Origin: a virus
DNA length: 64,000 nt
Direction: 5' to 3' (one strand)
IMG/VR virus record: IMGVR_UViG_3300042346_000188
Coordinates: 17,116-81,115 of that record
Made by a program: the position numbers and the translations under genes. How positions within the stretch are numbered: the first letter of the stretch is position 1; each line of letters begins with the position of its first letter. The notes under the pieces were generated by a model. That model searched no databases. It saw only the letters and a list, made by a program, of their open reading frames with translations, and had not been told where the DNA came from. This document shows, one piece after another, positions 26,401-54,096 of the stretch.

Positions 26401-26841
26401 AAAAACACATCTGGCGAGGTAGTGTCTGGTGTAGCTCCTAATGGTGTTGTGTACTGGGATGTAACTCGTCTTATGTGGCAACCTAAGGTAGCTAAGACCG
26501 CAGGTAAAGTGACTGAAGGCGATCCAGCCATAATAGTGCCATATGAGGGTACTGTGTTATTAAGTACAGTGCTTAATTCTAATGGTACAAAAACATTATA
26601 TAGAGGTCGTAATGGCCAATGGGAACCACATGTACAGCTTTCTACTAGTGAAATATTTACGACAGAAAAGCTAATGAAAGCTAACAAAGTAGCAACCAAA
26701 GCTTTCGTTACTGGTACATCAGGGTATTTTACTCGTACAATTAATTCGAAAGGTAAATTACCAGAGTGGCCTAAGTCGGCTACTGATATATTTGCTAAAA
26801 GCTTATTAGTAGGTAACGTTTTACCAACTTTAATTTTATAG
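17485..26841 (+). CDS. central tail fibre / tip attachment protein (gpJ-like), 3118 aa, with repeat arrays
   Basis: LPLVYG, GKKVR..YSNNPAWCLLDYL and LEPGDFVKLT motifs of gpJ/Tal-type proteins; FnIII-like segment PPRNL..LVWDAP; two repeat families. Confidence 0.85.
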   Translation: MVFLTLTLATWIMIAMVAISVGMTIYSLMQTPPAFDTSALEARKGAEVVIEGKSEDLPLVYGRALVGGSRVFHAVSSDFNYVASNADKTFATGVNHTVTWFTEFYLVNNPRAVNAILEKRGTTGTTEVLTQLAKSINGRKNEFLYFQQALCQGPIGGVIDVVLESSRYLDDATLATFGAPDDLNTGEKHKWSDPKKARTAVRIDVHYDAGMNIADSIIAANFPERSDATFNNIVYASATVRTDRDDPQFSAPPRLQFYIEGKKVRKVVNGVLNTNFEYSNNPAWCLLDYLLDGLSGASIPVEEINLPSFEAASLVCDYIVAEDVTTAGKIWQNTEGTRNIHTRDLPLYECNMIIDTKKPIRDNITGMLTSMGDARLIWSQGQYRLSLQYTHTSNDDLFIVAELGEDDLVLDQEVEINLPSASDRLNYCTVKFHNELSNFKEDSVSWPPKFPGKVYKGVGGKKYPISDYSYTEDNEDGSFNRGANLLNSVGVWGSTLNTTYLSYYIILTYEDVMDPDNNDLIKPVKVQYTGDNEIRIRIKNKTNTITYLDAQHKDWKSQKESIVTLPILKGETQVFHIEIDGTNTQKEKAVAARIVNGPKILWTTRESAYSDVLEIDNTDTTYSVFLEEDGGTKLEMETSVEAMTDPYHAAAKAEEYVRMSRSSFVIKFKYVVRQNYLEPGDFVKLTSPTLNLAGEIFRVNSVKIVEGHNCEVTAQRFDHLQLAWSQKDDQHMVPPNIYSNLFNPPRNLKYIPTGSSRLITSGTLVWDAPGDAVDLAYYIVSVHEADGPTRTNNAPIFRELGRVAESSFVLPKLEAFSAIFSVMAVSTSGRRSTTIYTGDKAQIIDVYDSYLFDGLTVSRSGLTVNWTACNVYESGVLLKALPAGTVTWTEGLLFIYFDFVNDKIIKATTDYTQVYNGVVLATFDGVEFNLSVSELDAPTVLTVEGRTDTVFDSKDAKIVWQANSSNLSASTFLKHYLVQVLTTADVLKKAYVITPDKDDAGSLLITDTMNLELFGTLTRSFKVRVYTVDSAGLLSATPKVSTITNAAPLVTTLELTPTVKAVFVKAAIMSEDDIVKYEFKQYATETIATAENTITTVSNSCTFATADDLDRWYTVTGYDYYGVGIESARVKEKSLAQPQSTGYAFLRYASDTAPVAPTGGTYLLPVPTKGTATDPLGTLAWSDGIPDGTARLWQTARIFTANEQPPHQTAWQTPVLVANSATIKYQYSSVNPPTTADADWADGPGIATLYMRVGTSKDGINGPWVWGAAFKVKGEAPQSSFVSTVFARATGSVVPDLPTGGTYPRGLPAGSIWKDGIPGGTGKIYTSSRLFTSDALTPQDPAWSTVTLMVTNDKTKFQLNNSDPISATGWYDSDDASKDPTLAIYMRINYSEDGGTTWTYGLPSKIKGEKGDPSYTSFISTVFTRTTGKPLPTPVAPTAGTFATDGLPNDGVWVDGIPPLPGVLWSSYKTFTNDPNATAESWSTPVRILDDDKTDYQFSVTNSSINSTWQDDAFEGAVYMRIGTSVDGVSFTYGPGIKIKGEKGDPGLISFKSTVFTRRAATNPVTAVPTGGSFDSPRPGPDQIEWEDGIPEGDGIVWQSYTTFVNDPNAATPAWSTPKAVLNDNNTKYYFNTANVATGWVTVPSTTTEWMRIDTSTDGFLTTVTGTPFKIKGEQGETGYTVFKSTVFTRRAANNPPTFTPTGITSDNLPTQVEWVDGIPPLPGVLWESHAYISTDPAVTTVTWSEPKQILNDVNTKHYFATTNSAVDSDWSLTPSTTTEWMRIDTSIDGFMTTSVKGTPFKIKGEKGETGSGIDIRLTNDLAYIPTDLSNVSDYSKAATGIVVQNNNVDVAYSATAVTLVGALPNTYSVTLEKESLTGTPSLEVINGIVTSKDFGTITQGVAKLTFVVTIKDQYGNILGPFKKSQTLVKQFPNGTLELLATSAAQLSVLDTVLPLVTNINVTYSPDKNGDGFADGTITWDYPVDAAISGFVVCYNNVRYSPGTTNFILTDYTCDDVLNNLTKQIIKIGTGTRSVSVPNMGTESYRVAFVFAYRVLSKATYDAYQFSRVIYDEAYWAVSSPKSLGVTVVEKSTPPERYTDVVNKDMEVSLEDGSTIKVSEIFENTVNANVINSNAALVAPTEGTVLFTYSGADTTSGNVNLNISFEASNPIAVTSRYAFCVISKETADLTLFTNLTNKQIMEEQKSATKFVEASEGVLQSNGRFKYSVQAANVPGALNHAVYIFAFRYASGGKLSRNNFIDVTTKTQYYGSPVLKVGTTKYSGNVVLKGDDIKDKTGVITSLTDLSKVAEDWNLANNKTLSAITALPLISATVPPIVYDSSANSSGNVDYKLNFFYNGVVIPPALPAVDDSIDGFCILEQTVLPNTADGLPSKTIATPTAAKMLTNPAARFLDARDYVSVDAGTYKYEVDMEETKAIPYRVVFIFAYRAITSGQKKQIQSGTTLVEIGDKEKKSYIVSAVVRTHPLNTIVVDGVVTSPSLFTGELYIRAGLRDSYGTTIAINKLSETISDFDKTNNTSIAKIVAVTNLALSYNSIGCTSGNVNLVIDFDFAGSLADIDGFVYYEATKDGQGTIADVGLATLFGNVNSRFIDVDATVSGTHFTVEIEEAKPTLFRTVFVCAFREVYDTTYKAANKLSTALKPGLLTFGKRFFIVSPIARSNLSGNLYQPQSQAIIKAGVNVGGSRVITLSDAIGDWDLANNGGLAGNTDTVAAPTYPLTDAMIIEGGLLATNINITANWLYTIVQIVDPITNELINPIDGFLVYLLEDTNTSPGTVINLNDLTVKKTFVTTDVTKRSYKFEAMPIKKDKNTLYYYNVAVFAYRVISEATYTKGLKTSSLKPSLKRPSAFNTPMCISSSTSYALTANASYVLKDTKGALPHDYPIGGDFWLNTAGYAVAGIPHLQVGYYNNAGWSPLTEDEVIKKFNTAYASKTGTIHEYSSPLEPINYPGFYWKNTSGEVVSGVAPNGVVYWDVTRLMWQPKVAKTAGKVTEGDPAIIVPYEGTVLLSTVLNSNGTKTLYRGRNGQWEPHVQLSTSEIFTTEKLMKANKVATKAFVTGTSGYFTRTINSKGKLPEWPKSATDIFAKSLLVGNVLPTLIL
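20905..22917 (+). repeat. five tandem ~135-aa repeats in the tip protein
   Basis: Recurrent STVFTR..PTGG..W-x-DGIP..W-S-x-P..MRI-x-TS-x-DG..KIKGEKG; boundaries approximate. Confidence 0.85.
23340..26120 (+). repeat. about five diverged ~200-aa beta-rich repeats in the tip protein
   Basis: Recurrent SGNVNL-x-I-x-F, IDGF and FIFAYR motifs with (L)S-x-x-x-x-DW-x-x-ANN linkers; boundaries approximate. Confidence 0.7.
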
Positions 26842-33600: not shown

Positions 33601-34281
33601 AGCTACACAACTACAGTTAGTAGCGGTACAGCCAAGCCTTTAAAAATAGATATTAATTCCTCTATTGAGAGCAACACAACACTAACTTTTAATAATAGCG
33701 GTACCATTCAAGGCGAAACTCTTTCAACAGCAAGAGTATTTAATAAACCTGAAAATGCTTTTGATATTTATTGCGCTTGTAAGCTTGTAATAAACAATAA
33801 TGGCACAATAAGAGGTAGAGGTGGCAGTGGTGGCAGAGGTGGTTCTTCAATTAATCGTGGCGATTATGATGGCGAAGCTGGCGGTCCAGGCGGAGATGCT
33901 ATTTATGCTTCTACAAATTTAACTCTTAATAATTATGGGACGCTTGCTTGTGGCGGTGGAGGAGGCGGTGGAGGTGGAGGTAATGGTTCTGGTGCCAGTA
34001 CTTGGAGTAGCTCTACATATGCCAGAAGCACTACATATCCTACTCCGTCAGGCTCTGATGTAGGTACTAATGGCACTTCAGGCAAGGCAAGCGGTGGCGG
34101 TGGTGGAGCAGGTGGTACTGGCGCAAACGGAGCTGCGGGCACTGGTGTGTACGGTACTTACTCTCGTCAAGGTGATAATAGCGGTATATATGCGTCAGGC
34201 GGTGCTGGAGGTGCCAAGGGTTCTGCACTTACGGGTGGAGGTAGCGTAACACTTAACAACTACGGGACATATTACCCATGA
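30646..34281 (+). CDS. receptor-binding adhesin with two glycine-rich (gp38-like) modules and FnIII-like domains
   Basis: Follows the S74 fibre; N-terminal SISDVNVDLGR..SLNE..VR-x-L cap; NNGTI-x-GGGG motifs at about 31680-32350 and 33690-34280; FnIII-like GLTSDTSYSYYVTAYN. Confidence 0.7.
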   Translation: MPYSISDVNVDLGRTTTATTSLNEPVVRDLLLADPYPAPVNLYPDLSPENNTPPVLSVNTITQNSCIFTWTGGETYGTYQLRGRWKDKDGYWVNIAAGNTLTKGAVFNFGYSGDLRNTMYGYYEVFIVIRFNGIDYLPSNTVNVQLLDWSFEDGFYPATPYGVGSTADANYPNHSVTYRYDIRWFRLALRLKGVADSELGGSAPATYTNFSMSIHRNVTIYDSNNYNGNVVMTVLAGNNNYLWEAPKLIIGIDVGSDHDFTFVYSGIANVDPSDYVLGHYETDTTYQPGDVVCMYSNLVMCIKTCTNIEPFNHASWSYYWDYPPTNPGRAIAFWNTHYARNSTFINNGTILGGGGGGGRGGETTITELYYNPSAFINQKYLKGDAVTHSGNIFVCVTDTVSAYFNGTFTWSTPVRSSHTTYWRFYALSTEKFSTGSDGLQGGPALYQGSGISGGVKLMNNGTIFGGGNGGGGGGGGTVPMSYAVVYGFNGEGTFSSTPVSPAGGDGGHGSFYNRAEVNPSVDFKYKGGMGGKGSINGLTAGENATGANHDYSGDGLGGGYIANNWTEGSFNVLPGGKPLPPVLSIAAVSQNSITLGIAKQDPIGGNTPTGYYIYDSANVQQGSTTNDTFTIAGLTSDTSYSYYVTAYNTLVSASSSTIIGKTALILPTFTFGVDNKTYNSFTVIISKVTSAIYYEIYFNGVLRTTINDSGNSTTVYATGPTMGISSTTYVTVKAYSGTNSSVLTPPQAWTTTYAAVPAVPTSFTYAETNNTNALLSWSGSGVSYKIAVKNQSNNAVTNYTSSIMNITATGLDYGTLYEISIVAVNEIGDSIAYVIPNVMLVDVYLPTLTLSSVTTKTFNVSFGGPMTGHTHTLMLQSMEYSGGWETEIIGAYASGSAFTPPNRSRGKYRLRIQVANSGGKVMATPYLDVQLSDWVISSSTTTNTPQNMSNGWYFNDAWIRNNTTALAASNPESTCLRSVTINSSGSYTTTVSSGTAKPLKIDINSSIESNTTLTFNNSGTIQGETLSTARVFNKPENAFDIYCACKLVINNNGTIRGRGGSGGRGGSSINRGDYDGEAGGPGGDAIYASTNLTLNNYGTLACGGGGGGGGGGNGSGASTWSSSTYARSTTYPTPSGSDVGTNGTSGKASGGGGGAGGTGANGAAGTGVYGTYSRQGDNSGIYASGGAGGAKGSALTGGGSVTLNNYGTYYP

Positions 34282-34721
34282 TAGTACGTAAGATAAAAAG
34301 CCAAGAAGAAATGGACAAATGCGTAGATATGTATATTAACATCTACGAAAATGAAATTATCCCATTAGATCGCGACAAGTCATTATTATCTATGAGACGT
34401 CACGTTGCTGCAAGGCAATTCTTTAGAGTTGTTGAAGATGATGGAGAAGTAATAGCATGGATTGCTGGAGCAGTTTTAGAGAGAGAGTTTATTGCAGAGA
34501 AATACATGCAACAAATATATTACTGCTCTAATCAAAAGGGTATGAAGTCTTACCGTTGTGTAGTATTGTTACATCAAGCTTTAGTAGAAGAAGCTAAGGC
34601 GTTAGGTATTAAATATGTACTTTCTACAGGCAGTCATGCCGATACTGAGAATGTGTTTGTAAGGATTCTTGGTAAGAATGGTTGGAATGTAAGAGGGTAC
34701 CTAGCAATTTTTCATTTATAA
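34278..34721 (+). CDS. GNAT-fold (acetyltransferase-like) protein
   Basis: Size and pattern FRVVEDDGEVIAWIAG...LVEEAKALGIKYV...LGKNGW. Confidence 0.5.
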   Translation: MIVRKIKSQEEMDKCVDMYINIYENEIIPLDRDKSLLSMRRHVAARQFFRVVEDDGEVIAWIAGAVLEREFIAEKYMQQIYYCSNQKGMKSYRCVVLLHQALVEEAKALGIKYVLSTGSHADTENVFVRILGKNGWNVRGYLAIFHL

Positions 34722-34730
34722 GGATTAAGC

Positions 34731-35396
34731 ATGGCCAAAAGAGTTAGGAAGGAACAGCCTACAGATGTTATTGATGCAGTCAAACCAATAACACTCTTGA
34801 CTAAAGCACAGAAACAGTATTTCAATTCAATGAAAACGAATACTATTACTTTTGGGATTGGCGTTGCGGGGACGGGAAAGTCTTACGTTGCAATCTCCTA
34901 TGCTGCACAATTGTTACAAGAGAAGAAGATAAACAAGATTATCTTAACAAGGCCAGCTGTTGAGGCTGGAGAATCGTTTGGATTTCTTCCTGGAGAGTTA
35001 GATGAAAAGTATGCGCCTTATATTGATCCTGTAAAAGATATACTTAATAAAAGATTAGGTACATCTTTCACTGATTACTTGTTTAAACGAAAGATTATTG
35101 AAGCGCGGCCACTAGCATTTATTAGGGGAAGTACTTTTGAAGAAGCTTTTGTAATACTAGATGAGGCTCAAAACTGTACACCTACTCAGATGAAAATGTT
35201 TCTAACTAGAATTGGCGAAGATGCAAAAGTTGTTATAGATGGGGATATCCAACAAAAGGATATCAAAGGCACATCAGGATTGTCTGATGCAATTGTAAGA
35301 TTGCAAGGGATGAACGATGTGGGTATTGTTACATTTGACATTGAAGATGTTGTCCGTAGCGGCATCTGTAAAGAAATTATTAGGAGGTATGCATGA
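34731..35396 (+). CDS. phoH: PhoH-family ATPase
   Basis: GVAGTGKS, RPAVEAGE, GFLPG, RGSTF, ILDEAQN, LTRIGE, GDIQQ, DVVRS motifs. Confidence 0.95.
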   Translation: MAKRVRKEQPTDVIDAVKPITLLTKAQKQYFNSMKTNTITFGIGVAGTGKSYVAISYAAQLLQEKKINKIILTRPAVEAGESFGFLPGELDEKYAPYIDPVKDILNKRLGTSFTDYLFKRKIIEARPLAFIRGSTFEEAFVILDEAQNCTPTQMKMFLTRIGEDAKVVIDGDIQQKDIKGTSGLSDAIVRLQGMNDVGIVTFDIEDVVRSGICKEIIRRYA

Positions 35397-35575
35397 AGTA
35401 TATATGGGCAAGGCTTAAAGAGCCTTCAACATGGTTTGGACTGATTTCAGCTACATTAGCTGTATTAAGTTCGTTTAAATTTATTACATTAACAGCAGAA
35501 GAAATGGATAGTCTGCTTGCGTTGTCAGTTGCTCTTTTGGGCAGTGGTAGCGTAGTATCCAAAGATCCACAATAG
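35393..35575 (+). CDS. holin-like two-TM membrane protein
   Basis: RLKEPSTW-x-GL start and two hydrophobic segments; last gene of the late operon. Confidence 0.6.
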   Translation: MKYIWARLKEPSTWFGLISATLAVLSSFKFITLTAEEMDSLLALSVALLGSGSVVSKDPQ

Positions 35576-35581
35576 CGGTAC

Positions 35582-35609
35582 GCCTCGACACAATTGTCGG
35601 GGCTTTTTT
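35582..35609 (+). terminator. intrinsic terminator ending the late/structural operon
   Basis: GCCTCGACA-CAAT-TGTCGGGGC followed by TTTTTT. Confidence 0.8.
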
Positions 35610-35619
35610 ACGAGAGTCA

Positions 35620-35812
35620 TGGGGGCAATTTTGCGGGGCAAGACGGGGCATTTCTGCACGAATTTTGGTGGGCGGCAAATCTGGGCCTGTGTGGCGCGGG
35701 GCGGTGGGGGCATCACTGGTGGATCAGGGTGGCAGTTGCGTGCCGTGTAGGGCAGTTTCTGGTGCCAGAACGGGTACACGTGGGGCAGTTGCGTGCAGTT
35801 CTTCAGGTACAC
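35620..35812. repeat. non-coding G-rich island with phased GGCA-like words
   Basis: Abrupt GC/G enrichment in an AT-rich genome; GGCA/TGCC/GGTA/TGCA at 35709, 35731, 35741, 35751, 35763, 35773, 35784, 35794, 35806. Confidence 0.7.
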
Positions 35813-35815
35813 TCA

Positions 35816-35834
35816 ACCCCGTTAAATTAACCCT
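35816..35834 (+). promoter_or_regulatory. 19-bp box ACCCCGTTAAATTAACCCT, copy 1 (putative phage RNAP promoter)
   Basis: Perfect repeat found in 5 intergenic copies, all in the same orientation. Confidence 0.7.
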
Positions 35835-35880
35835 TGCGGCCTCCCCCTGTATTATCTCTCTTAGTAATACGGAAATAATA

Positions 35881-35902
35881 GTATCTTATATGAAGTACAA
35901 TA
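35881..35902 (+). promoter_or_regulatory. early 22-bp box GTATCTTATATGAAGTACAATA, copy 1
   Basis: Identical in 3 intergenic copies; contains -10-like TATCTT/TACAAT; GGAAA about 10 nt upstream. Confidence 0.75.
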
Positions 35903-35925
35903 ATAACCTTATATAGGATAACATT

Positions 35926-36756
35926 ATGTTTATTACAAGAAAAATGGTATTAAAAGATTTTGCAGTTAATCGTAAGAAAGCTACAAAGAAATATGGCAAG
36001 CATGAGTTGCCTCAAATTGACTATTCAAGTGATGCTCTGTCTTACAACATAAAAACTGTTTTGGCAACTTATCTTCAAGCCGGTAGTATGGCCTATGCAC
36101 AGTTGAAACTCCACTCCGAAGCTGCAATTTCTTTGTGGGAACCTACTAAAAGGATATTTAAGATAGATCCTACAGTGTCTGCTGAATTGTGTAATTCAGC
36201 TGTTAGCGCTAGGGTGCCTGTAGATATTATAAGACTTCCTGATTGGTCTATAAGAGTTGATTGCCCTGAGATGCAACTAATGGCCTGTAAGTTGCGAGTA
36301 CATGCCAATGGTGATATAGAAGATATGTTAGTAATAGTCATTGATGAAGAAAAAGAGCAAGTTGCAAAGGCTCTACGCCTAAATGAACCCTGGTGCGCTG
36401 ATGAAGACACTGAAGAGGCTAAAGCTTACATTGGAAAGGCACTTTCTCTTTTATTATATTTGAGCACAGTGCATAATAGCGTTCCAAGATCTGCTTATAA
36501 AAAGTATACGGCTCTTAGTAAGAAAAATCAAACCAAACCTTTTATCTATCCTGAAAAAGCTTCTATAGTAAAGATAGGAGAAGAGCTTGGAAAAATGCTT
36601 CAAACAGCTTATACAAAGCAAGCAGGCTACAGTATGAAAGCGCACATAAGAAGAGCGCATTGGCATAACTATTGGACAGGTCCGAAAGATAATAGGAAGC
36701 TAATATGTAAGTGGACAAACTCCACAGGTGTTAATATGAATTTAGCCGATGTATAA
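35926..36756 (+). CDS. AcrVA2/FinQ-like early protein
   Basis: HIRRAHWHNYWTGP...KW C-terminal motif and LPDWSIRVD resemble the AcrVA2/FinQ family (recalled consensus PHIRRGHWH); first early gene. Confidence 0.6.
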   Translation: MFITRKMVLKDFAVNRKKATKKYGKHELPQIDYSSDALSYNIKTVLATYLQAGSMAYAQLKLHSEAAISLWEPTKRIFKIDPTVSAELCNSAVSARVPVDIIRLPDWSIRVDCPEMQLMACKLRVHANGDIEDMLVIVIDEEKEQVAKALRLNEPWCADEDTEEAKAYIGKALSLLLYLSTVHNSVPRSAYKKYTALSKKNQTKPFIYPEKASIVKIGEELGKMLQTAYTKQAGYSMKAHIRRAHWHNYWTGPKDNRKLICKWTNSTGVNMNLADV

Positions 36757-36769
36757 CGCGGGAAATACG

Positions 36770-36791
36770 GTATCTTATATGAAGTACAATA
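36770..36791 (+). promoter_or_regulatory. early 22-bp box, copy 2
   Basis: Exact repeat of 35881..35902. Confidence 0.75.
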
Positions 36792-36808
36792 CTAACTTGG
36801 AGATTAAA

Positions 36809-37018
36809 ATGAAATACGAAGTGTTTATATTTGAACGTAATGCCGACAGTTATCATGATAGAGCAAATTTATTAAAAGCTTATAGAAGTTTTGAAGAATA
36901 TGAGGATAAGATGGTGTTTGTTGTTGATACCGAAACAGGTGCCTTTGAGGTTATCTGTAATAAAGAGCAACTAAGTCTAGCAGCTGCAAAATTATTGTAT
37001 ATGGGGGAATTAAGATGA
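36809..37018 (+). CDS. hypothetical early protein
   Basis: GGAG RBS before ATG 36809; the ORF-track start at 36749 runs through the promoter box. Confidence 0.65.
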   Translation: MKYEVFIFERNADSYHDRANLLKAYRSFEEYEDKMVFVVDTETGAFEVICNKEQLSLAAAKLLYMGELR

Positions 37019-37314
37019 GCACAGTAATGTTTATGATTGACGCGGTTTTAGATATACGCGTTAGAACCCATTCAGTATTTGAATATGTACTATTCGAAGC
37101 TGAGTGTTACGATGAGTGTATTACTCTCCTAGACAGCGCTGATGCACGTCTTAGAGTTGGTAATAATTACTCATATTCTTGGAACCATACCCATTGGGAT
37201 GGACAAAGATTAGAGTCATTTATTACACTTTTAGATTTACTTGATGATGATAAGTACAAATTAAACGTCCTTACAGAGGGCCATCTTTTTCAACAAGGGG
37301 TATTAGTATTATGA
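37015..37314 (+). CDS. hypothetical early protein
   Basis: ATGA overlap with the previous gene; GGGGA RBS. Confidence 0.65.
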   Translation: MSTVMFMIDAVLDIRVRTHSVFEYVLFEAECYDECITLLDSADARLRVGNNYSYSWNHTHWDGQRLESFITLLDLLDDDKYKLNVLTEGHLFQQGVLVL

Positions 37315-37469
37315 GTGAATGGTATAGCTTTATCGAAGCAATGTTACTGGTTGGTTTTTATTTTGTTTATGTAGCTTACAATGTATTTGCAGAAGACTGC
37401 AAAGATAGACGTAAGTATTGCAAGGTACGTCGTTGGGCACGGCATGCTCTGCAAAAGGACTACAAATAA
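37311..37469 (+). CDS. small membrane protein (52 aa)
   Basis: Not in the ORF track; ATGA overlap; one hydrophobic segment then a basic tail. Confidence 0.55.
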   Translation: MSEWYSFIEAMLLVGFYFVYVAYNVFAEDCKDRRKYCKVRRWARHALQKDYK

Positions 37470-37483
37470 ACGCGGAAAACGGG

Positions 37484-37505
37484 GTATCTTATATGAAGTA
37501 CAATA
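37484..37505 (+). promoter_or_regulatory. early 22-bp box, copy 3
   Basis: Exact repeat of 35881..35902. Confidence 0.75.
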
Positions 37506-37543
37506 AGGTACCTCAATTCAATTAATCCAAGAGGAGAAAAATT

Positions 37544-37774
37544 ATGTTTAGTTTACTTGATTCACAATGTGCTTGTGTAGGTAGCAGTTATGATATATTC
37601 ACGGAAGAATATTTTGAAGCACTATACCATATCGAGTATGGCGACGGAAAAGAGTCTCACGCCTTCTTGGATCATCATTTGAAGGGTAAACAAAAATCTG
37701 AACCAGCGTCTGAGTTCAAAGACGTAAAAACAATACAGATTCCATTTGAGGAGGAGTTTGAAGGCTATTGGTAA
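37544..37774 (+). CDS. hypothetical acidic early protein
   Basis: GAGGAG RBS; 76 aa. Confidence 0.7.
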   Translation: MFSLLDSQCACVGSSYDIFTEEYFEALYHIEYGDGKESHAFLDHHLKGKQKSEPASEFKDVKTIQIPFEEEFEGYW

Positions 37775-37781
37775 CAGCCGC

Positions 37782-37811
37782 ATAGACCTGAGTAGGTCTA
37801 TAAAGTGCTTA
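37782..37811 (+). ncRNA. putative H-type pseudoknot element, copy 1
   Basis: Stem ATAGAC/GTCTAT, loop CTGAGTAG pairing with downstream TGCTTA; same layout at 42168. Confidence 0.5.
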
Positions 37812-37863
37812 TGTGTATAAGGATGTGTATCCTATACTGATGAGACTATAAAGTCGAAACAAC
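37812..37863 (+). ncRNA. type III hammerhead ribozyme 1
   Basis: GUA site (37815-17), stem I AGGAT-gtgt-ATCCT, CTGATGA (37837-43), stem II GACT-ataa-AGTC, GAAAC (37856-60); stem III short. Confidence 0.75.
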
Positions 37864-37881
37864 TCCAAGAGGAAATTTACA

Positions 37882-38166
37882 ATGAAAAACAAATTAGATA
37901 AACTAGCTTTAATTGGTGTCCTAAACACTTTCTGGGTGTTTGAACGCAACGGGATGGGCGGTGTACCCTCCTTTGATTTCACTAATAAAAAAGCTGGAGT
38001 TAATGTCTGGCACATCGAGGGCGACAAAGTAGGCATAATGTTACTTGAAACAAAGGAGGTATTTGAAACTAACCTAGAATGGGATGAGATTTCCGAATCC
38101 TATGGGCTTGGAGATTGGGATATTCCAAGATTAAATTCTCTAATTAACTTAACTGAAGGTGATTAA
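37882..38166 (+). CDS. hypothetical early protein
   Basis: GAGG RBS directly downstream of hammerhead 1. Confidence 0.7.
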   Translation: MKNKLDKLALIGVLNTFWVFERNGMGGVPSFDFTNKKAGVNVWHIEGDKVGIMLLETKEVFETNLEWDEISESYGLGDWDIPRLNSLINLTEGD

Positions 38167-38167
38167 A

Positions 38168-38353
38168 ATGGAAGGTACAATTTTTGAAATTGGTGGTTAT
38201 GAGTTTTACATAGCTTGGAATGAAAAGATGACAATCTACAAAGTATGGTATGATCGCGGCCATTACCTTGATAGACGCGCTCCAAGGTTTGAATGCACTT
38301 CTTATGAGGAATCTGTGGCATTCTGTAAACTCAAATACGCTTACTGTGGGTAA
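38168..38353 (+). CDS. hypothetical early protein
   Basis: ORF track 38159..38353; AAGGTGA RBS favours ATG 38168. Confidence 0.6.
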   Translation: MEGTIFEIGGYEFYIAWNEKMTIYKVWYDRGHYLDRRAPRFECTSYEESVAFCKLKYAYCG

Positions 38354-38407
38354 GTGTCTCGGGATGTGTATCCCAACTGACGAGTCTAAAAAGACGAAAC
38401 ACACTTA
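38351..38407 (+). ncRNA. type III hammerhead ribozyme 2
   Basis: GUC site (38356-58), stem I GGGAT-gtgt-ATCCC, CTGACGA (38377-83), stem II GTCT-aaaa-AGAC, GAAAC (38396-400), stem III GTGT/ACAC. Confidence 0.8.
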
Positions 38408-38418
38408 GGAGTTATATT

Positions 38419-38595
38419 ATGTTTACTATTGAAATCAATGATGTAGAAATTGAAATGAAAGAAACAGGAATGGGTATTTGGGAAGGTTCTAAAGAATTTT
38501 ATCAAGTAGTATTTGATGAATTTCTTCAAGAATTGTTTGTAGCAGCAATGCTAGGCAATCGTATTGTTAAGTGTGAGAGTCAATTCTTATGCTAA
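38419..38595 (+). CDS. hypothetical acidic early protein (58 aa)
   Basis: Not in the ORF track; AGGAG RBS directly after hammerhead 2; MFTIEINDVEIEMKETG... Confidence 0.65.
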   Translation: MFTIEINDVEIEMKETGMGIWEGSKEFYQVVFDEFLQELFVAAMLGNRIVKCESQFLC

Positions 38596-38705
38596 AACAT
38601 ACAGTTTATGGTATTGGAAATACCGTAATGTCTTCAATAGATATGAGTGCAGATGTAATTACAATTGGGCTAGCATTAGCTCTACTTTTAATGTTTACAA
38701 AATAG
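38589..38705 (+). CDS. possible small hydrophobic protein (38 aa)
   Basis: Fills the gap between neighbours; C-terminal hydrophobic stretch; no clear RBS. Confidence 0.35.
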   Translation: MLKHTVYGIGNTVMSSIDMSADVITIGLALALLLMFTK

Positions 38706-38713
38706 GTGATATT

Positions 38714-39133
38714 ATGTTTCCTTTAATTGCTTTAGGTGTTACAGCTTTAGGTGGATTTGGTTATACTAAAACAAATTCTTACAAAAGAAAAGTAGAACGT
38801 CATGCAAGACGTGCTGCTGAGAAAGCAACAAAAATTGCGAAAACCCAACTAGAGGCTGAAGCCTTGCATGACCTGATGGTAGAAGATATGGCTAAGTCAG
38901 ACTCTGCTAATCTTGAAGGTCGATTCTGTGTTAACGAGAAAGATAAGGAGTTAAAATATGTACGCTCAATACGAACATTAAAGCTGGATAATTTACAAAT
39001 ACTTTCGTATGAGAAAGATGATACGGAAGTAGCAGTTGTTGATACAAAGGGTTCGGTCGTCCCCTTCTATTTGAAAAAGAACGATGCGCTTCTACTACAA
39101 GAAATTTTAGACAAACGGTTTCCAACACCGTAA
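38714..39133 (+). CDS. hypothetical protein with N-terminal hydrophobic anchor
   Basis: AGGTGA RBS before ATG 38714 (ORF-track start 38564 unlikely); MFPLIALGVTALGGFG then a charged helix. Confidence 0.65.
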   Translation: MFPLIALGVTALGGFGYTKTNSYKRKVERHARRAAEKATKIAKTQLEAEALHDLMVEDMAKSDSANLEGRFCVNEKDKELKYVRSIRTLKLDNLQILSYEKDDTEVAVVDTKGSVVPFYLKKNDALLLQEILDKRFPTP

Positions 39134-39168
39134 GTTGGAGAGTATTGTAGTCATATCTAAGGATTACA

Positions 39169-39294
39169 ATGGCATTTCTACAATACTCGGTTACAATTCT
39201 GTTAATGTTTGCTTTATTAGGCATCTCGCTTGTTAGTTTTACTGTAGGTACATGTATTCACCTACACAGAACAGGAGTAAGAAAATGCCGTTAA
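39169..39294 (+). CDS. small membrane protein (41 aa)
   Basis: AAGGA RBS; single TM segment with basic tail. Confidence 0.45.
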   Translation: MAFLQYSVTILLMFALLGISLVSFTVGTCIHLHRTGVRKCR

Positions 39295-39359
39295 TTTATT
39301 TAGCAGTTGTTGTATTAGTTGCAAAAGTTATGGACTCCGTTATTAACGAAGACAAGTAA
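39285..39359 (+). CDS. very small membrane peptide (24 aa)
   Basis: AGGAG RBS; MPLIYLAVVVLVAKVMDSVINEDK. Confidence 0.4.
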   Translation: MPLIYLAVVVLVAKVMDSVINEDK

Positions 39360-39368
39360 CAAAAACAC

Positions 39369-39434
39369 ACCCCTTTCAGATTCGATTCCTTAACAGGTTT
39401 CGGGTTTGAGAGGGGTTCCTCCTTTATTTTTTCC
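39369..39434 (+). terminator. long hairpin plus U-tract ending the early region
   Basis: 17-bp G.U-rich stem, UU/UU internal loop, CCT-TAAC-AGG tip, then TCCTCCTTTATTTTTT. Confidence 0.65.
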
Positions 39435-39446
39435 ATTTTGGTACTT

Positions 39447-41666
39447 ATGCGAAATAAATTATTACGTTCTTTAAAGTCTAGAATTGTATCTGAGATTGCT
39501 CCTCAATCTCCATTACGATTCTTAAAGAAGTTGAATATCGAAGATCATCTTGATGAGATAATTGCCAACGCTTATTTGTATACTAGGCCTAAGAAAGGCT
39601 CTGATAAGCAGATTATAATGTCAGAGGTAATTAGTATTCTTGGCCATAACATGCGAAAAGGTGAAAAGAAAGACTCTGCTACTGCAGCAAGATGCGGAGC
39701 ATTCATTCTGTATTCTTTTGACAGCTTAGGTCTAACAGAAATTGTAATGACTAATGCAGCCAATGGGCACGGTACATATATTGTTAATGTAATTGATGAA
39801 AAGAGTATGCAAGAGTTGTGGGAAACTGTTGGTAGGCAAGGAGGTAAGGGAAAACTGCCCTCACTAGTACCATATGAAGATTGGAAAGGGTTTAAACATT
39901 CTACAGGCTTGTCTTTAGTTAAGACACAGTCTAGAGAGGTTGCAGCTACACTAACACCAGCTACTCATCCTATTGTATTTGAAGCAGTAAATAAGAGTCA
40001 AAGAGTTGGCTGGATTATAAACCAAGAAGTATACGCAATTGCTAAGTGGGCGTTGAGTAATAAAACAGAAGCATTCTCAGATATTTGGGAACAAAACAAT
40101 CCACAGGCAAGAACAACAAAGCTGCGAGAAACCAAAGCAATTTTAAGTATTGCAGATAAGTTTACTGATACAACTTTCTATCATCTGTACTACCTTGATT
40201 TTAGAGGTCGTAAGTACCCTACAACAGCATATCTGCATGAACAATCTTCAGATATAGCTAAAGGCTTACTGCTTAGAAAAGACAAGAAAGTTATTGGACA
40301 AGAGGGTTTCTTTTGGCTATGTGTATCTATTGCATCTAATTGGGCAGGCAGCTCAGGCAGAGAAGATGGTGCAAAGACTGACAAAATACCACTTAGAGAT
40401 AGATACCATTGGGTTCTAGACAATGAAGAGATTTTAACAGCTTATGCAATGTCGCCTAAGTTGCATCAAGGTTGGATGGATGCTGATAAGCCTTGGCAAT
40501 TCCTTGCAGCTTGTGTAGAGCTTAAGAATGCATTAAGTATGGGTTCAATGTACTTACAGTATGAATCACATATAGAATGCTTTATTGACGGTTCTACTAA
40601 TGGCTCTCAACATTTAAGTGCGTTAACTAGAGATGAAGTTACTGCCCCTTATGTTAATTTAGTACCGCTAGATATGCCTGGTGATTTATATGCATACGTA
40701 GCTGCTCATGTGTGGATGAAGATTGATTCAGTTCTTAGCAGAATGCCACCTGCATTAATACTAGAATGTGAAGAATTCATTGATGGATTAATATCGCTGA
40801 AGAAGAAAATTGTAGCTGCAGAGCCTAAATCTGATTTGAGAGCAGAATTAGTAATGCAAATTAGACAGTACAAAAAAGATTGGGAATCTGTTGGCAATAA
40901 AGCTGCACCTGTATTCTGGGGTAGAATTAAAGACTCTAAGCAAAGACGTAAAATTGTAAAGAGAAATGTAATGACACTACCTTATGGGGGCTCTAGCTAT
41001 GGTCTATCTGAACAACAAATAGATGATTCAAAGAAACATGGCATAGAGTTGTTAATGAATATGGAGCATAAATGGGCAGCTTGGATGGGCAGATTGGTAT
41101 ATGAAGATGCTAAAGACTCGCTAGAAAGACCTATGATGTTGTTGTCTGTATTTGAAAAAGCTGGTGCAGCTGCAGAGAAAAGAGGTCAATTCTTAGAGTG
41201 GGTTGTGCCTGTAACAAACTTTCCTGTAGTACAAAACTATACAGAGGGTAAGACTAAGAGAATACATATTCAGTGGGGGCCTCGAATTGGTATTAGAAGC
41301 GATACCACAGGATACTTTGGGAATGATCTGCAATTGCATGTATGTTTCATTGAGGATCAAGTTCCCTCAAAAGGAAAGCAGTCTCAAGGAGCAGCACCTA
41401 ATGTAATCCATTCTTTGGATGCAGCACATCTAGCAATGACAACAGTTAGATGTGATTTTCCTATCACTACAATACATGATTCATATGGATGCCTATTAGC
41501 AGACATGCCTAAGCTTTATCGTATTGTGCGTGAGACATTTGTTGAGTTGTACCGAGATAATCCTTTGTACCCTATCATAGATAAGATTGATGGTGATCTT
41601 ACTTATGTAGATATGGGTGATTTGGATGTTAATTTAATTCTAGAAAGTGAATATGCTTTCGCATAG
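39447..41666 (+). CDS. single-subunit T7-type DNA-dependent RNA polymerase
   Basis: LDFRGRKY, DKPWQFLAAC, motif A DGSTNGSQHL, motif B RKIVKRNVMTLPYG, APNVIHSLDAAHL, motif C IHDSYG. Confidence 0.95.
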   Translation: MRNKLLRSLKSRIVSEIAPQSPLRFLKKLNIEDHLDEIIANAYLYTRPKKGSDKQIIMSEVISILGHNMRKGEKKDSATAARCGAFILYSFDSLGLTEIVMTNAANGHGTYIVNVIDEKSMQELWETVGRQGGKGKLPSLVPYEDWKGFKHSTGLSLVKTQSREVAATLTPATHPIVFEAVNKSQRVGWIINQEVYAIAKWALSNKTEAFSDIWEQNNPQARTTKLRETKAILSIADKFTDTTFYHLYYLDFRGRKYPTTAYLHEQSSDIAKGLLLRKDKKVIGQEGFFWLCVSIASNWAGSSGREDGAKTDKIPLRDRYHWVLDNEEILTAYAMSPKLHQGWMDADKPWQFLAACVELKNALSMGSMYLQYESHIECFIDGSTNGSQHLSALTRDEVTAPYVNLVPLDMPGDLYAYVAAHVWMKIDSVLSRMPPALILECEEFIDGLISLKKKIVAAEPKSDLRAELVMQIRQYKKDWESVGNKAAPVFWGRIKDSKQRRKIVKRNVMTLPYGGSSYGLSEQQIDDSKKHGIELLMNMEHKWAAWMGRLVYEDAKDSLERPMMLLSVFEKAGAAAEKRGQFLEWVVPVTNFPVVQNYTEGKTKRIHIQWGPRIGIRSDTTGYFGNDLQLHVCFIEDQVPSKGKQSQGAAPNVIHSLDAAHLAMTTVRCDFPITTIHDSYGCLLADMPKLYRIVRETFVELYRDNPLYPIIDKIDGDLTYVDMGDLDVNLILESEYAFA

Positions 41667-41675
41667 GAGTTTATA

Positions 41676-41978
41676 ATGCAGTTAATGACAATTCGTGAGT
41701 ACTTAGAAATGATTGAGTTTGAAGTATGTTATCAGACATTGAGCCACAGGTTAACTTTGATAGGTGTCAGACCTTATCAGTTTAAAAAGGTTGGTAAGAA
41801 CTTTGCAGGTTTATTTAAACTATCTGATCTACAAGCTGCTGGTAACTACAAGAGAAGACTACCACGTAAACCACAACCTGTAGTCTTGCAAACAGAAATA
41901 CTTAGGTTTCTAAGTAACCCTTTAACGCCTGTACATCGCTGGTATGGCTATAGAAATGAGGAATTAAAATGGCTTTGA
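41676..41978 (+). CDS. putative DNA-binding protein (wHTH/excisionase-like N-terminus)
   Basis: LMTIREYLEM..VCYQTLSHRL..GVRPY pattern; basic; AGGAG RBS. Confidence 0.4.
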   Translation: MQLMTIREYLEMIEFEVCYQTLSHRLTLIGVRPYQFKKVGKNFAGLFKLSDLQAAGNYKRRLPRKPQPVVLQTEILRFLSNPLTPVHRWYGYRNEELKWL

Positions 41979-42169
41979 GTGTAATTGGCGGTGGAAAGAA
42001 TAAAGAACCACAAATAAAGATTTTTAAAGTTGTTCAAGGTGATCCAGATCATATTGATCAATTAAATGTACTAATTGCCAATAGCTGGCAAATTACAGAA
42101 ATCATTTCTCTTAGCGGCTTTTTAAATATGCCAGGGGAAGCTCACTATTTATTGGAAAAAGTAGATTAA
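41969..42169 (+). CDS. hypothetical protein
   Basis: GAGG RBS; overlaps the previous stop. Confidence 0.6.
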   Translation: MALSVIGGGKNKEPQIKIFKVVQGDPDHIDQLNVLIANSWQITEIISLSGFLNMPGEAHYLLEKVD

Positions 42170-42195
42170 GCCTGGGCATGCTTCTTAACTGCCCA
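42168..42195 (+). ncRNA. putative H-type pseudoknot element, copy 2
   Basis: Stem AAGC/GCTT, loop CTGGGCAT pairing with TGCCCA after a CTTAAC linker. Confidence 0.5.
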
Positions 42196-42217
42196 CAACT
42201 GACAGAAGGAGGTCGTC

Positions 42218-42592
42218 ATGTTAATGACACCAACACTATGTCTCGTTGCTGCAATGTACTTCGAGGCTAGAAACCAAACGTCCGATGCCATGTTAGGTGT
42301 CGGTCAAGTATTGATGGAGAATACAGAGAATGGCAAAACTATGTATGATACATTGAAAAAGAAAGGGCTGTTCTCTTGGGCTAGGAAAGGTGTTAAGATA
42401 CCAAATCCTAAGAGTCCGGCGGACGTTGAAGTTTTTGAGCATCAGCAGAAGCTGGCGCGAAAAATGCTTTTCAAACAGCTTAGAACACCTTTATTACGAG
42501 GTAAGTATAAGCATTTTAATAATTGGCAATTAGGCAGGCGATTCAAAACTAATGTACCGTTGGTTAGAATTGATGACTTAGTTTTCTATTAG
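42218..42592 (+). CDS. cell wall hydrolase (SleB/Hydrolase_2-like)
   Basis: CL-x-x-AMYFEAR-x-Q...VGQV...FSW...RIDDLVFY. Confidence 0.75.
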   Translation: MLMTPTLCLVAAMYFEARNQTSDAMLGVGQVLMENTENGKTMYDTLKKKGLFSWARKGVKIPNPKSPADVEVFEHQQKLARKMLFKQLRTPLLRGKYKHFNNWQLGRRFKTNVPLVRIDDLVFY

Positions 42593-42600
42593 GATATTTT

Positions 42601-42870
42601 ATGTACGAAGATTTATATGCAACAGTACAATATGTACTAGAGTCAGAAGGGAATGATTTTGAAGAATACATGGATGCTACGTGGGGTACAGAAGATTTCA
42701 CATTGGCTAATGGCGACATGTTCGATAGGGCTCTAAAAGACCCCGATGTCGATCACCCATATGCTACAGCAATAAAGGCTAGAAGAAAACTTGATGAAAT
42801 GTGTGAAGCTGATAGAGTAGCAAAACCTTTGTATTTAACAGTAGATCAAGTAATGGCATTAGCGCTATGA
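42601..42870 (+). CDS. hypothetical acidic protein
   Basis: AGGA RBS; ORF track. Confidence 0.6.
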   Translation: MYEDLYATVQYVLESEGNDFEEYMDATWGTEDFTLANGDMFDRALKDPDVDHPYATAIKARRKLDEMCEADRVAKPLYLTVDQVMALAL

Positions 42871-43031
42871 GTGCGTGGGATTATATCATAATTGCGTATG
42901 CTGTATTTGCTACTTATAGGGTAGGGAAGTTGACTATCATAATTAATGAGCTTAGGAATGTATGCGCAGATCTAGAATCACGTTTAATTTTAATTACGTT
43001 AAGTAAAGGACCAAATGACAAATTTCACTGA
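42867..43031 (+). CDS. small membrane-anchored protein (54 aa)
   Basis: ATGA overlap; N-terminal hydrophobic segment; not in the ORF track. Confidence 0.45.
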   Translation: MSAWDYIIIAYAVFATYRVGKLTIIINELRNVCADLESRLILITLSKGPNDKFH

Positions 43032-43191
43032 TGAAGAGATAGAAGAATTACGCCAAATGATTAATGTACTTGGCGTATGTATAGGCGGTCCAGAAGGCTA
43101 TGATGAAAATGATCCTAGTAGCTACTGGCCATTGGCAACTGCTATTGTAAAATGGCAAGGGAGGTTAAATGAAAATATTCAGCAAGCTTAA
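43015..43191 (+). CDS. hypothetical protein (58 aa)
   Basis: AAGGA RBS; not in the ORF track. Confidence 0.5.
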   Translation: MTNFTDEEIEELRQMINVLGVCIGGPEGYDENDPSSYWPLATAIVKWQGRLNENIQQA

Positions 43192-43549
43192 TGATCTGCT
43201 GATTGCATTACAATCAAACCCAGATTATCATGAAATTCTTGAAGACATGCTTCCTGTATTAAGGGGCTTAATTCCAACTAGTACATTAATGAATGACTTA
43301 GGTGGTGATGTTTATATTCTCGAAACATTGGAAGATTTCAAAGAGATTGAAGTATTTGATTTGGATGACCCTGGTAAGAGTCTACTTGATAAAGCAGGCA
43401 TATTTGACATTGTATCGTTTTGCGATGTAGATTGGATAAAAATACTATCATTAACATCAGATAGCGGTGGTCCGGTTTATTACATTCCACGAGAGCTTGC
43501 TCGACTTAACCCAAACGTGGGAGCATCTCTTGAGCTTTCGAATTCATAG
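43169..43549 (+). CDS. hypothetical protein
   Basis: GGGAGG RBS; 126 aa. Confidence 0.7.
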   Translation: MKIFSKLNDLLIALQSNPDYHEILEDMLPVLRGLIPTSTLMNDLGGDVYILETLEDFKEIEVFDLDDPGKSLLDKAGIFDIVSFCDVDWIKILSLTSDSGGPVYYIPRELARLNPNVGASLELSNS

Positions 43550-43568
43550 ACCCCGTTAAATTAACCCT
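43550..43568 (+). promoter_or_regulatory. 19-bp box, copy 2 (upstream of the replication module)
   Basis: Exact repeat. Confidence 0.7.
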
Positions 43569-43597
43569 TACATCAACCTACTATATGAGATTTAAAA

Positions 43598-44095
43598 ATG
43601 GCAATTCTTAAAAATATTGAAATACACTGGCCACAACTTGATAAACCTGAATCAAAGTATAATCCTCAGAATCCAAGATGGACAATGCAATGCCGCACTT
43701 ATGATAAGGCTCTCTCGAAGCAAGTTAAAGCAATGGGAGTTAAGGTTGAGGAAGAGGAATTACCAGATGGTACAGAATACTGGAGATTCTCTTTAGGAAA
43801 GAATACTGTTTCAAAAACTACAGGGAACAAGAATCCGCCTGTAGAAGTTTTAGATGGTAACTTACAACCAATTCCTTCTAAGTCTATTGGCAATGGTTCT
43901 GTTGCAAATGTACGTGTTTTAGAATGGGAAGATAAGAATAAGGCTGGCGTAAGTGCTGGTGCAATCTTAATGGCAGTACAGATTACAAAATTAATCCCTT
44001 ATGTAGCAAAAGGTATTGATAAGGAATCTTTTGAAGTTACAGAGACAGAGATTGTATATGAAGAAATGCCAGATATTGATGGGGATGTATTCTAA
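43598..44095 (+). CDS. single-stranded DNA-binding protein (T7 gp2.5-like)
   Basis: IGNGSVANV and L-x-AVQI-x-x-L-x-x-Y motifs; acidic tail ending in Phe; heads the replication cluster. Confidence 0.75.
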   Translation: MAILKNIEIHWPQLDKPESKYNPQNPRWTMQCRTYDKALSKQVKAMGVKVEEEELPDGTEYWRFSLGKNTVSKTTGNKNPPVEVLDGNLQPIPSKSIGNGSVANVRVLEWEDKNKAGVSAGAILMAVQITKLIPYVAKGIDKESFEVTETEIVYEEMPDIDGDVF

Positions 44096-52481: not shown

Positions 52482-52617
52482 AGTACAAGTAACATTAAAA
52501 GGCGATAGCCAACAAAGACGTAAGCAGTTAAGAGAATTGTATCGTACGTATAAATATGTACAAATGAAGTTCTCTTTTGGTTACTGGCTTAAGAACACAT
52601 ATATTTGTTGGAATTAA
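52456..52617 (+). CDS. hypothetical protein
   Basis: Short ORF overlapping the nrdA end; start uncertain. Confidence 0.45.
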   Translation: MSVSHATGEVQVTLKGDSQQRRKQLRELYRTYKYVQMKFSFGYWLKNTYICWN

Positions 52618-52621
52618 TCAT

Positions 52622-52647
52622 AGGGAGGACTTCGGTCTTCCCTTTTT
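52622..52647 (+). terminator. intrinsic terminator
   Basis: AGGGAGGAC-TTCG-GTCTTCCCT followed by TTTT. Confidence 0.8.
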
Positions 52648-52660
52648 AACGGAGAGTATT

Positions 52661-53965: not shown

Positions 53966-54096
53966 TAGAGTTTACAGGTATTACAGAGTTGTTAATGGAA
54001 GTCAGTTTAGTTGTTATAACAGGCTCACTCGCAGTAATTATTTTAGGGTTTGCAGTATTTGCAGTTAAAAACATGTATGAGGATTTAATGAAATGA
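53962..54096 (+). CDS. small membrane protein (44 aa)
   Basis: GAGGAG RBS; ATGA overlaps at both ends; long hydrophobic segment. Confidence 0.55.
   Translation: MIEFTGITELLMEVSLVVITGSLAVIILGFAVFAVKNMYEDLMK

Follow-up and report, generated by a model that had tools for sequence, protein, structure and literature searches.

Paired hammerhead motifs between small genes of a freshwater phage: structure, family and possible role in splitting a multi-gene message

What purpose is served by hammerhead ribozymes located in the gaps between the genes of a phage operon? This question is raised by a locus in the 81,115-bp IMG/VR virus record IMGVR_UViG_3300042346_000188, which represents an uncultured freshwater phage of the lytic type and is complete by the CheckV estimate. 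The window, that is, the whole stretch of DNA analyzed here, comprises 64,000 nucleotides (nt), bases 17116-81115 of this record, and all positions given without a contig name refer to it. Two type III hammerheads, herein referred to as copy 1 and copy 2, were found in the window, both of them in gaps of a run of small open reading frames (ORFs) upstream of an RNA polymerase gene. Self-cleavage of a hammerhead yields 2',3'-cyclic phosphate and 5'-OH ends. In the reading favored here, which we hold to be fairly probable, the self-cleaving hammerheads split a multi-gene phage message into separate units. Observed at this locus are the motif, its membership in a family, the covariation within that family, and the placement before start codons; RNA libraries also contain the locus.

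Two type III hammerheads and their relatives

The two elements and their predicted cleavage sites are as follows.

37809-37868, + strand, hammerhead copy 1, type III; cut predicted between A37817 and U37818
38350-38408, + strand, hammerhead copy 2, type III; cut predicted between C38358 and U38359

The initial annotation had described a complete type III hammerhead in each gap, with GUA and GUC cleavage sites, and direct reading of the sequence bears this out. Both copies have the type III topology, with an open stem III and with loops capping stems I and II, and all the core positions (C3 U4 G5 A6 N7 G8 A9 ... G12 A13 A14) are intact. In copy 1, the core consists of CUGAUGA (37837-37843) and GAA (37856-58). 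Its stem II is GACU/AGUC (37844-47 / 37852-55) with the loop AUAA, and its stem I is formed by 37818-37824 and 37829-37836, with the loop GUGU and a bulged A37834. Stem III of copy 1, for which only 3 bp had been noted earlier, indeed contains only 3 pairs, between the 5' strand U37814-G-U37816 and the 3' strand A37859-C-A37861, and H17 is A37817. In copy 2, the core is CUGACGA (38377-83) plus GAA, stem II is GUCU/AGAC with the loop AAAA, and stem I (38359-65 / 38370-76) has a C38360/A38375 mismatch and the loop GUGU. Stem III of this copy has 4 pairs, GUGU (38354-57) with ACAC (38399-402), and H17 is C38358. Neither copy has lost the 10.1-11.1, 1.1-2.1, or 15.1-16.1 pair. However, stem III is short in both, and stem I contains a bulge in copy 1 and a mismatch in copy 2. 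The A15.1-U16.1 pair is A37859-U37816 in copy 1 and A38399-U38357 in copy 2, and H17 is not G in either. The compensatory differences claimed between the copies are real: A-U in one corresponds to G-C in the other in stem I, and A-U to U-A in stem II, while the GUGU loop is shared.

Both copies have the same sense, on the gene strand, and lie 541 nt apart; they bracket two small ORFs and are located 10-13 nt before the next start codon. The proposed adjacency of each copy to the next ribosome-binding site (RBS) was also confirmed. Thus, copy 1 is followed by GAGG (37869-72) and ATG (37882), and copy 2 shares bases with the upstream stop codon (38351-53) and adjoins AGGAG (38407-11), which is followed by ATG at 38419.

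The window contains 7 instances of the bare core pattern vs. 2.0 expected, and the helices were found at these two positions only. Full-length alignments of both copies were obtained with the 54-position Rfam model and the 59-position family model. For RF00008 (Hammerhead_3, clan CL00010), copy 2 scores 35.0 bits (E = 2.6e-7) and copy 1 scores 27.1 bits (E = 4.5e-5; both E-values per genome), and these are the only two RF00008 matches in the whole 81-kb record. A search of positions 34200-44000 (9.8 kb) with Rfam at E up to 0.5 found only these two elements and no other ribozyme family. With the family model built in this study (R1), copy 1 scores 61.4 bits and copy 2 scores 66.7 bits, both being training sequences of that model.

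Relatives were searched with a 19-base pattern covering stem-loop I and the core, which was found in 39 viral contigs. Alignment A1 contains 26 non-redundant sequences. A covariance model made from A1 then found extra copies in the same contigs, and alignment A2 contains 45 distinct sequences, including copies that the 19-base pattern had not selected. In A1, 90.7% of the cells are paired and 111 double-change cells were found vs. 32.6 in shuffles; in this alignment the search pattern itself fixed the upper four stem I pairs, which accounts for their lack of variation. In A2, 93.5% of the cells are paired, with 224 double-change cells vs. 61.8 in shuffles, and slid partners are at most 53% paired. 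Double changes were found here in 14 of the 17 pairs, including the stem I pairs that are fixed in A1. The covariation score of A2 is 0.754, compared with 0.201 for shuffles and at most 0.106 for slid partners, and covariation is present in all three stems. Across the family, hardly any variation is seen in loop 1 (GUGU) or at the end of loop 2 (NAAA), and both copies keep these sequences. Such conservation would be expected if the loops form the loop-loop contact used by natural hammerheads.

Family members always occupy gaps between genes, and their placement before start codons is a constant feature. No downstream ORF could be called at 2 of the 26 loci; at the other 24, the start codon lies 5-70 nt past the hammerhead segment on the same strand, and in 23 of these the distance is 5-25 nt. 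The adjoining genes share no identity and include those for an HNH endonuclease, an ATPase, and unknowns. Arrays are common, with five copies in L034, four in L010, and three each in L031 and L007. On the basis of the family-wide covariation and the constant placement, the identification of both elements as type III hammerheads is well supported.

Several features of individual relatives were observed in addition. L034 contains five hammerheads within 2.9 kb (9219-12080), and upstream of each, at 1-13 nt from the predicted cut, is a strong hairpin rich in GC; variants of a single hairpin (CUCCUGGC...GCCAGGAG) precede four of the five. In 17 of the 45 sequences of A2, for example L034:9219, L010:5583, and L015:2194, U is opposite U at 10.1/11.1 (CUGAUGA-UUG...CAU-GAAA), where G-C is usual. 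In L009 (4650-6239), a hammerhead (4650-4708), a twister-P5 (4919-4985), and two weaker twister-P1-like matches are located between small genes. The twister-P5 scores 51.2 bits, above the Rfam threshold, and together with the hammerhead it brackets one gene of 64 amino acids (aa). L003, a 7.8-kb viral contig with a hammerhead, also contains a permuted tmRNA at 3258-3515, which at 79.3 bits exceeds the Rfam threshold.

Gene neighborhood and RNA libraries

All the large ORFs of the window are located on the + strand. Structural-type giant ORFs are followed by a terminator-like hairpin, then by small ORFs at 35.9-39.4 kb, and then by the RNA polymerase gene; both hammerhead gaps fall within the small-ORF run. 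The features in this part of the window are listed below.

35582-35603, strong terminator-like hairpin after the structural-type giant ORFs
37544-37774, + strand, 76-aa ORF upstream of copy 1; a near-identical ORF is present in L114
37882-38166, + strand, 94-aa ORF downstream of copy 1; homologues are present in L114 and L120
38159-38353, + strand, 64-aa ORF with an alternative ATG at 38168
38419-38595, + strand, 58-aa ORF downstream of copy 2
39438-41666, + strand, gene for a single-subunit phage RNA polymerase of 742 aa, which closes the small-gene cluster

The polymerase gene matches phrog_414 (1.4e-122) and phrog_2166 (N4-like RNA polymerase, 1.1e-36). No PHROGs or Pfam family match was found for the flanking small ORFs, and nothing in the phage collection matched the region by megablast or blastn. 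A 58-aa ORF of L045, considered in the comparison for a counterpart of copy 2, is not homologous to the 58-aa ORF of the window (E = 1.9). The layout, with small genes just before a T7-like/N4-like RNA polymerase gene, resembles a T7-like early region, and the label "early operon" used in the initial annotation fits it as a putative one.

A 22-bp repeat (GTATCTTATATGAAGTACAATA) is present in three exact copies (35881-35902, 36770-36791, and 37484-37505), with 0 expected by chance. Each copy is located 20-40 nt ahead of an RBS, and the third one (37484-37505, + strand) precedes the unit formed by the 76-aa ORF and hammerhead 1. These repeats look like promoters of the phage polymerase. They also coincide with mosaic breakpoints between strains, represented by metatranscriptome joints at 37515 and 37525. 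A scan for sigma-70 promoters gave no enrichment, with 26 found and 24.8 expected.

Of the words sampled from 36700-39400, up to 88% are present in freshwater metatranscriptome libraries from three studies. In these data, which consist of assembled contigs, RNA ends are not visible, and contig depth cannot be used to rank genes. The region is highly mosaic between strains, and in one strain variant of the metatranscriptomes a different hammerhead, of the L115 type, is joined to the same downstream gene at 37864.

The unit between the two predicted cuts consists of the 94-aa ORF and the 64-aa ORF. Two same-sense hammerheads 541 nt apart suggest that this unit (37818-38358) might be excised and circularized by a host ligase such as RtcB, giving a viroid-like or retrozyme-like circle. 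The 5'-OH and 2',3'-cyclic phosphate ends are those joined by RtcB. Additionally, stem-loop I is identical to that of two viral records of 366 and 377 nt, L014 and L018, which look like circular plant-virus satellite RNAs. However, close relatives of the phage hold only one of the two copies, no back-joint was found among the metatranscriptome contig joints, and clustered prophage hammerheads gave no circular or spliced products (Perreault et al., 2011; PMC3088659). Excision of a circle is thus regarded as extremely unlikely.

Two giant ORFs in the structural part of the window deserve a separate record. The ORF at 2962-16020 (4352 aa) contains tape-measure-like and lytic-transglycosylase-like segments, and the ORF at 17485-26841 (3118 aa) has zero PHROG matches.

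Folding, origin, and alternative explanations

Several points weigh against the splitting of the message by these two elements, for which cleavage and its effects are inferred. In the Rfam model search suggested by the initial annotation, both copies were found end to end with low E-values, but both RF00008 scores lie below the Rfam gathering score of 48.5 bits. Because neither copy reaches this score, a default Rfam scan of the whole window at gathering thresholds gave no match. L014 and L018 (44.2 and 43.8 bits) also fall short of this threshold, as do well-formed phage relatives (at most 31 bits), and the gathering score is therefore a poor discriminator in this subgroup; missing it says little. 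Contigs of the metatranscriptomes start at 38374, 38389, and 38412 (three runs), 16-54 nt past the predicted cut, and no contig end coincides with a predicted cut. The remaining points concern the folding of the two copies and the origin of copy 1.

Copy 2 is identical in the approximately 95%-identical relatives L004, L042, and L043, except for one base of loop 2. Its stem III strands are GUGU and ACACAC, and two registers are therefore possible. The competing 7-bp register anticipated in the initial annotation does exist, between 38351-57 and 38401-07. The active register, which consists of 4 pairs, a 2-nt bulge, and then 3 pairs, is predicted at -6.1 kcal/mol vs. -11.4 kcal/mol for the register shifted by 2 nt. 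Before cleavage, the active fold also competes with a hairpin at the end of the upstream ORF.

38337-38357, + strand, 9-bp hairpin at the end of the ORF 38159-38353; the stem III 5' strand of copy 2 lies within it, and it is part of the minimum free energy (MFE) structure

A cut after C38358 would leave this hairpin 1 nt from the new 3' end, and the predicted unpaired probability of AGGAG rises from 0.22 to 0.67 after the cut. The folding energies do not rule out activity, because non-canonical core pairs and tertiary contacts are ignored in them. On these models, a slow or condition-dependent ribozyme is plausible for copy 2, which is the likelier active ribozyme in this genome.

Copy 1 was taken in the initial annotation as equivalent to copy 2, and this part of the description does not hold: copy 1 is recombinant-like, its stem III is broken, and it has a strong competing fold. 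The hammerhead fold of copy 1 is predicted by ViennaRNA at -3.6 kcal/mol vs. -11.5 kcal/mol for an extended stem I hairpin. This rival hairpin pairs G37815-A37817 with U37835-C37837, the first core bases, and hides the cut site. The estimated fraction of copy 1 in the hammerhead fold is about 1e-6, vs. 0.01-0.5 for most relatives. For its RBS, no change is predicted, the unpaired probability being 0.48 before and 0.50 after the cut. Moreover, L042 and L043, whose RNA polymerase is 98% identical, have no copy 1. In these relatives, one 87-aa ORF takes the place of the 630-bp cassette 37526-38155, which comprises the 76-aa ORF, hammerhead 1, and the 94-aa ORF. The junction of this replacement recurs as a metatranscriptome contig joint, and both forms co-occur in one metatranscriptome. 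Since near-identical relatives lack its whole cassette, copy 1 is dispensable.

The true counterpart of the copy 1 locus was found in L108 and L114, which have the same upstream ORF end and hairpin. The ORF at 10722-11003 in L114 is 88% identical to the 94-aa ORF and has a hammerhead upstream. In the hammerhead of L108 and L114, stem I is a perfect 7-bp helix and stem III comprises 6 bp (AGUUGU/ACAACU), and the MFE structure is the canonical junction. A hammerhead is also present upstream of a distant homologue of the 94-aa ORF (38% identity) at 5477-5746 in L120. This third hammerhead, found before the homologue of the 94-aa gene in L115, L118, and L120, differs in all three helices and folds canonically. 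Three lineages thus have three different hammerheads before the 94-aa gene family, so that a hammerhead at this place has been maintained while its sequence was replaced. The 3' half of copy 1, from the core through GAAACAAC, is of the L108 type, with an 8-nt deletion after GAAACAAC; the 5' flank and the 5' strand of stem III are of the L032/L112 type, in which the partner strand is ACACU. The mismatched stem III with its 3 pairs and the bulge in stem I are explained by the joining of halves of two lineages together with the deletion. Copy 1 is therefore probably a weakened recombinant of two hammerhead lineages, and it probably cuts slowly or not at all, since its stem III strands no longer match.

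These features would also be expected if both elements were decaying relics, derived from real hammerheads but inactive in this phage, the gaps being spacers with leftover structure. The 3-bp stem III, the bulged stem I, the far more stable rival fold, and the chimera-like composition of copy 1 with its 8-nt deletion agree with decay, as do the preference of copy 2 for the shifted register and the absence of the copy 1 cassette from relatives with a 98%-identical RNA polymerase. On the other hand, all the core positions and the family-wide conserved loop sequences are kept in both copies, copy 2 varies at a single loop 2 base across its approximately 95%-identical relatives, and the stabilization of natural hammerheads by tertiary contacts and non-canonical core pairs does not enter into nearest-neighbor energies. 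We therefore consider the loss of activity in both copies unlikely.

A further hairpin is located upstream of copy 1.

37782-37801, + strand, 8-bp hairpin with the core AGACC...GGUCU, after a 7-nt gap from the stop of the ORF 37544-37774

Its loop (UGAGUA) and the hexamer UGCUUA at 37806-11 are complementary, and the segment 37782-37811 may therefore form an H-type pseudoknot. After a cut in copy 1, the hairpin would end up near the 3' end of the upstream product. The same 8-bp hairpin is found unchanged before hammerheads in five or more further groups of contigs (L045/L109, L032, L112, L108/L114, and L115/L118/L120), and without a hammerhead, after a stop and before an RBS, in L107, L110, L119, and others. 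In total, this hairpin type recurs in 19 viral contigs, with or without a following hammerhead. A second copy in the window (42168-42195) has the same layout after a stop codon, with compensating changes (UGGGCA/UGCCCA); in the two copies the complementary hexamer is located 5-6 nt downstream.

The upstream hairpins, together with the 2-nt register slip of copy 2 and the extended stem I hairpin of copy 1, could be elements of a switch, in which the competing folds would be set by translation of the upstream ORF, temperature, or Mg2+. A strong hairpin 1-13 nt from the cut was found in about one third of the family (15 of the 46 upstream flanks at z < -2; mean z = -1.65 over the 46). A ribosome terminating on the upstream ORF would melt or mask the rival structures, since these overlap the last codons and the stop of that ORF. 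Regulation was also raised for slow phage variants by Perreault et al. (PMC3088659). Most relatives, however, fold directly into the hammerhead, so that the competition seen here may be accidental, and no ligand-binding or sensor element is evident. Regulated cleavage is accordingly rated as rather improbable.

The mosaic structure of the region allows one more explanation, in which the conserved hammerhead sequence acts at the DNA level as a site for swapping small-gene cassettes, and RNA cleavage is secondary. Copy 1 resembles a crossover between a 5' half of the L032/L112 type and a 3' half of the L108/L114 type, and in a strain variant of this highly mosaic region the L115-type hammerhead is linked to the same gene at 37864. 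Covariation of the helices, however, preserves RNA pairing, which is not needed for DNA homology, and the real cassette boundaries are at 37525 (the 22-bp repeat) and 38156 (a gene end), not at the hammerheads. A role as a DNA joint is for these reasons very unlikely.

Proposed role and comparison with known systems

According to the favored reading, cleavage of the phage message would proceed as follows. Both elements would be transcribed within a multi-gene message running through the small genes upstream of the RNA polymerase gene. The RNA would fold into the three-way junction and cut 3' of H17, that is, after A37817 and C38358. The upstream product would then carry a 2',3'-cyclic phosphate at its 3' end, with a hairpin a few nucleotides before it. 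A 5'-OH would mark the start of the downstream product, in which stem-loops I and II would make up a compact leader of about 50 nt immediately before the Shine-Dalgarno sequence. We infer that the fates of the neighboring genes would be separated in this way, and that the cut in copy 2 would probably free the RBS. The ribozymes would be natural counterparts of the ribozyme insulators of synthetic biology, with a role like that of the RNase III sites in T7 early RNA.

An extended form of this model, which we consider decidedly doubtful, assumes a modular punctuation of the early message (a stop, a 3'-capping hairpin or pseudoknot, a hammerhead, and an RBS), a Pnk-like kinase that triggers decay, and use of the hammerhead core as a cassette-exchange joint, to which the chimeric copy 1 points. 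If it were true, every unit would have a protected 3' end and a 5'-OH start of its own, and phosphorylation of these 5'-OH ends by the kinase could set off decay at a later stage. The ORF at 54093-54725 (210 aa) resembles the kinase half only of T4 Pnk (1ly1, 6.6e-7; phrog_505, 1.6e-21). It directly follows the gene for an ATP-dependent DNA ligase (52577-53965), and because of this neighbor DNA-end repair is the simpler reading of the kinase.

Splitting of the message is reasonable as a role for the phage hammerheads, and it is not new, having been published as a hypothesis for clustered phage hammerheads (PMC3088659). Three arrangements of clustered prophage hammerheads were cleaved in vitro in that study, and the message-splitting role was proposed there (Perreault et al., 2011; PMC3088659). 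As in those clusters, same-sense hammerheads are located here in the gaps of one operon, next to variable neighbor genes, and the same role is proposed. Unlike those clusters, the hammerheads described here belong to an 81-kb freshwater phage with a single-subunit RNA polymerase, there are two copies, one of which looks impaired, and they are known from sequence. HHphage of the haloviruses HF1 and HF2 is located 13 nt before the start codon of an early gene on a polycistronic transcript, and a mapped 5' end lies within 3 nt of its cleavage site (PMC3088659). The short distance to the start codon is shared with the present copies, whereas HHphage is a structural variant that needs high Mg2+ and the copies described here have a canonical core.

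The type III hammerheads of plant-virus satellites (RF00008) have the same topology and core as the two copies. The match to L014 and L018, which we take to be sobemovirus satellites, is exact in the 12-nt stem-loop I (GGAUGUGUAUCC) and in the NAAA loop 2. Satellite RNAs replicate as circles and their ribozyme cuts multimers, whereas here the ribozyme is located between ORFs in the mRNA of a DNA phage. A full-text literature search with the stem-loop I 12-mer gave no relevant match.

In T7, RNase III sites between the early genes and around the RNA polymerase gene yield separate stable mRNAs. The position between early genes and the presumed outcome are similar in the present phage; the analogy is functional only. 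The mechanisms are unrelated, as a host protein nuclease cuts long irregular hairpins in T7, while here the RNA would cut itself. Engineered insulators of the RiboJ type in E. coli increase the downstream transcript approximately twofold and the protein two- to tenfold (PMC6206723). In these insulators, a hammerhead just before the RBS likewise removes the upstream RNA and leaves a defined structured leader. Since insulators placed alike raise both transcript and protein, a stabilizing or insulating effect is plausible for the phage elements, which are natural, unlike RiboJ with its added 3' hairpin.

The purpose of hammerheads in phage and bacterial operons was described as still unsettled in a 2019 review (PMC6765202). 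What the present locus adds is modest: a well-populated subgroup with a satellite-like stem-loop I, a case in which a hammerhead is kept while its sequence is replaced before one gene family, and a chimeric copy. The locus adds no new principle, and it provides material for a test of the purpose of these hammerheads. The family comprises at least 45 covarying variants with a constant placement before start codons, and the natural "broken" copy beside its intact counterparts offers a ready comparison for the effect of cleavage on the stability and translation of the neighboring genes.

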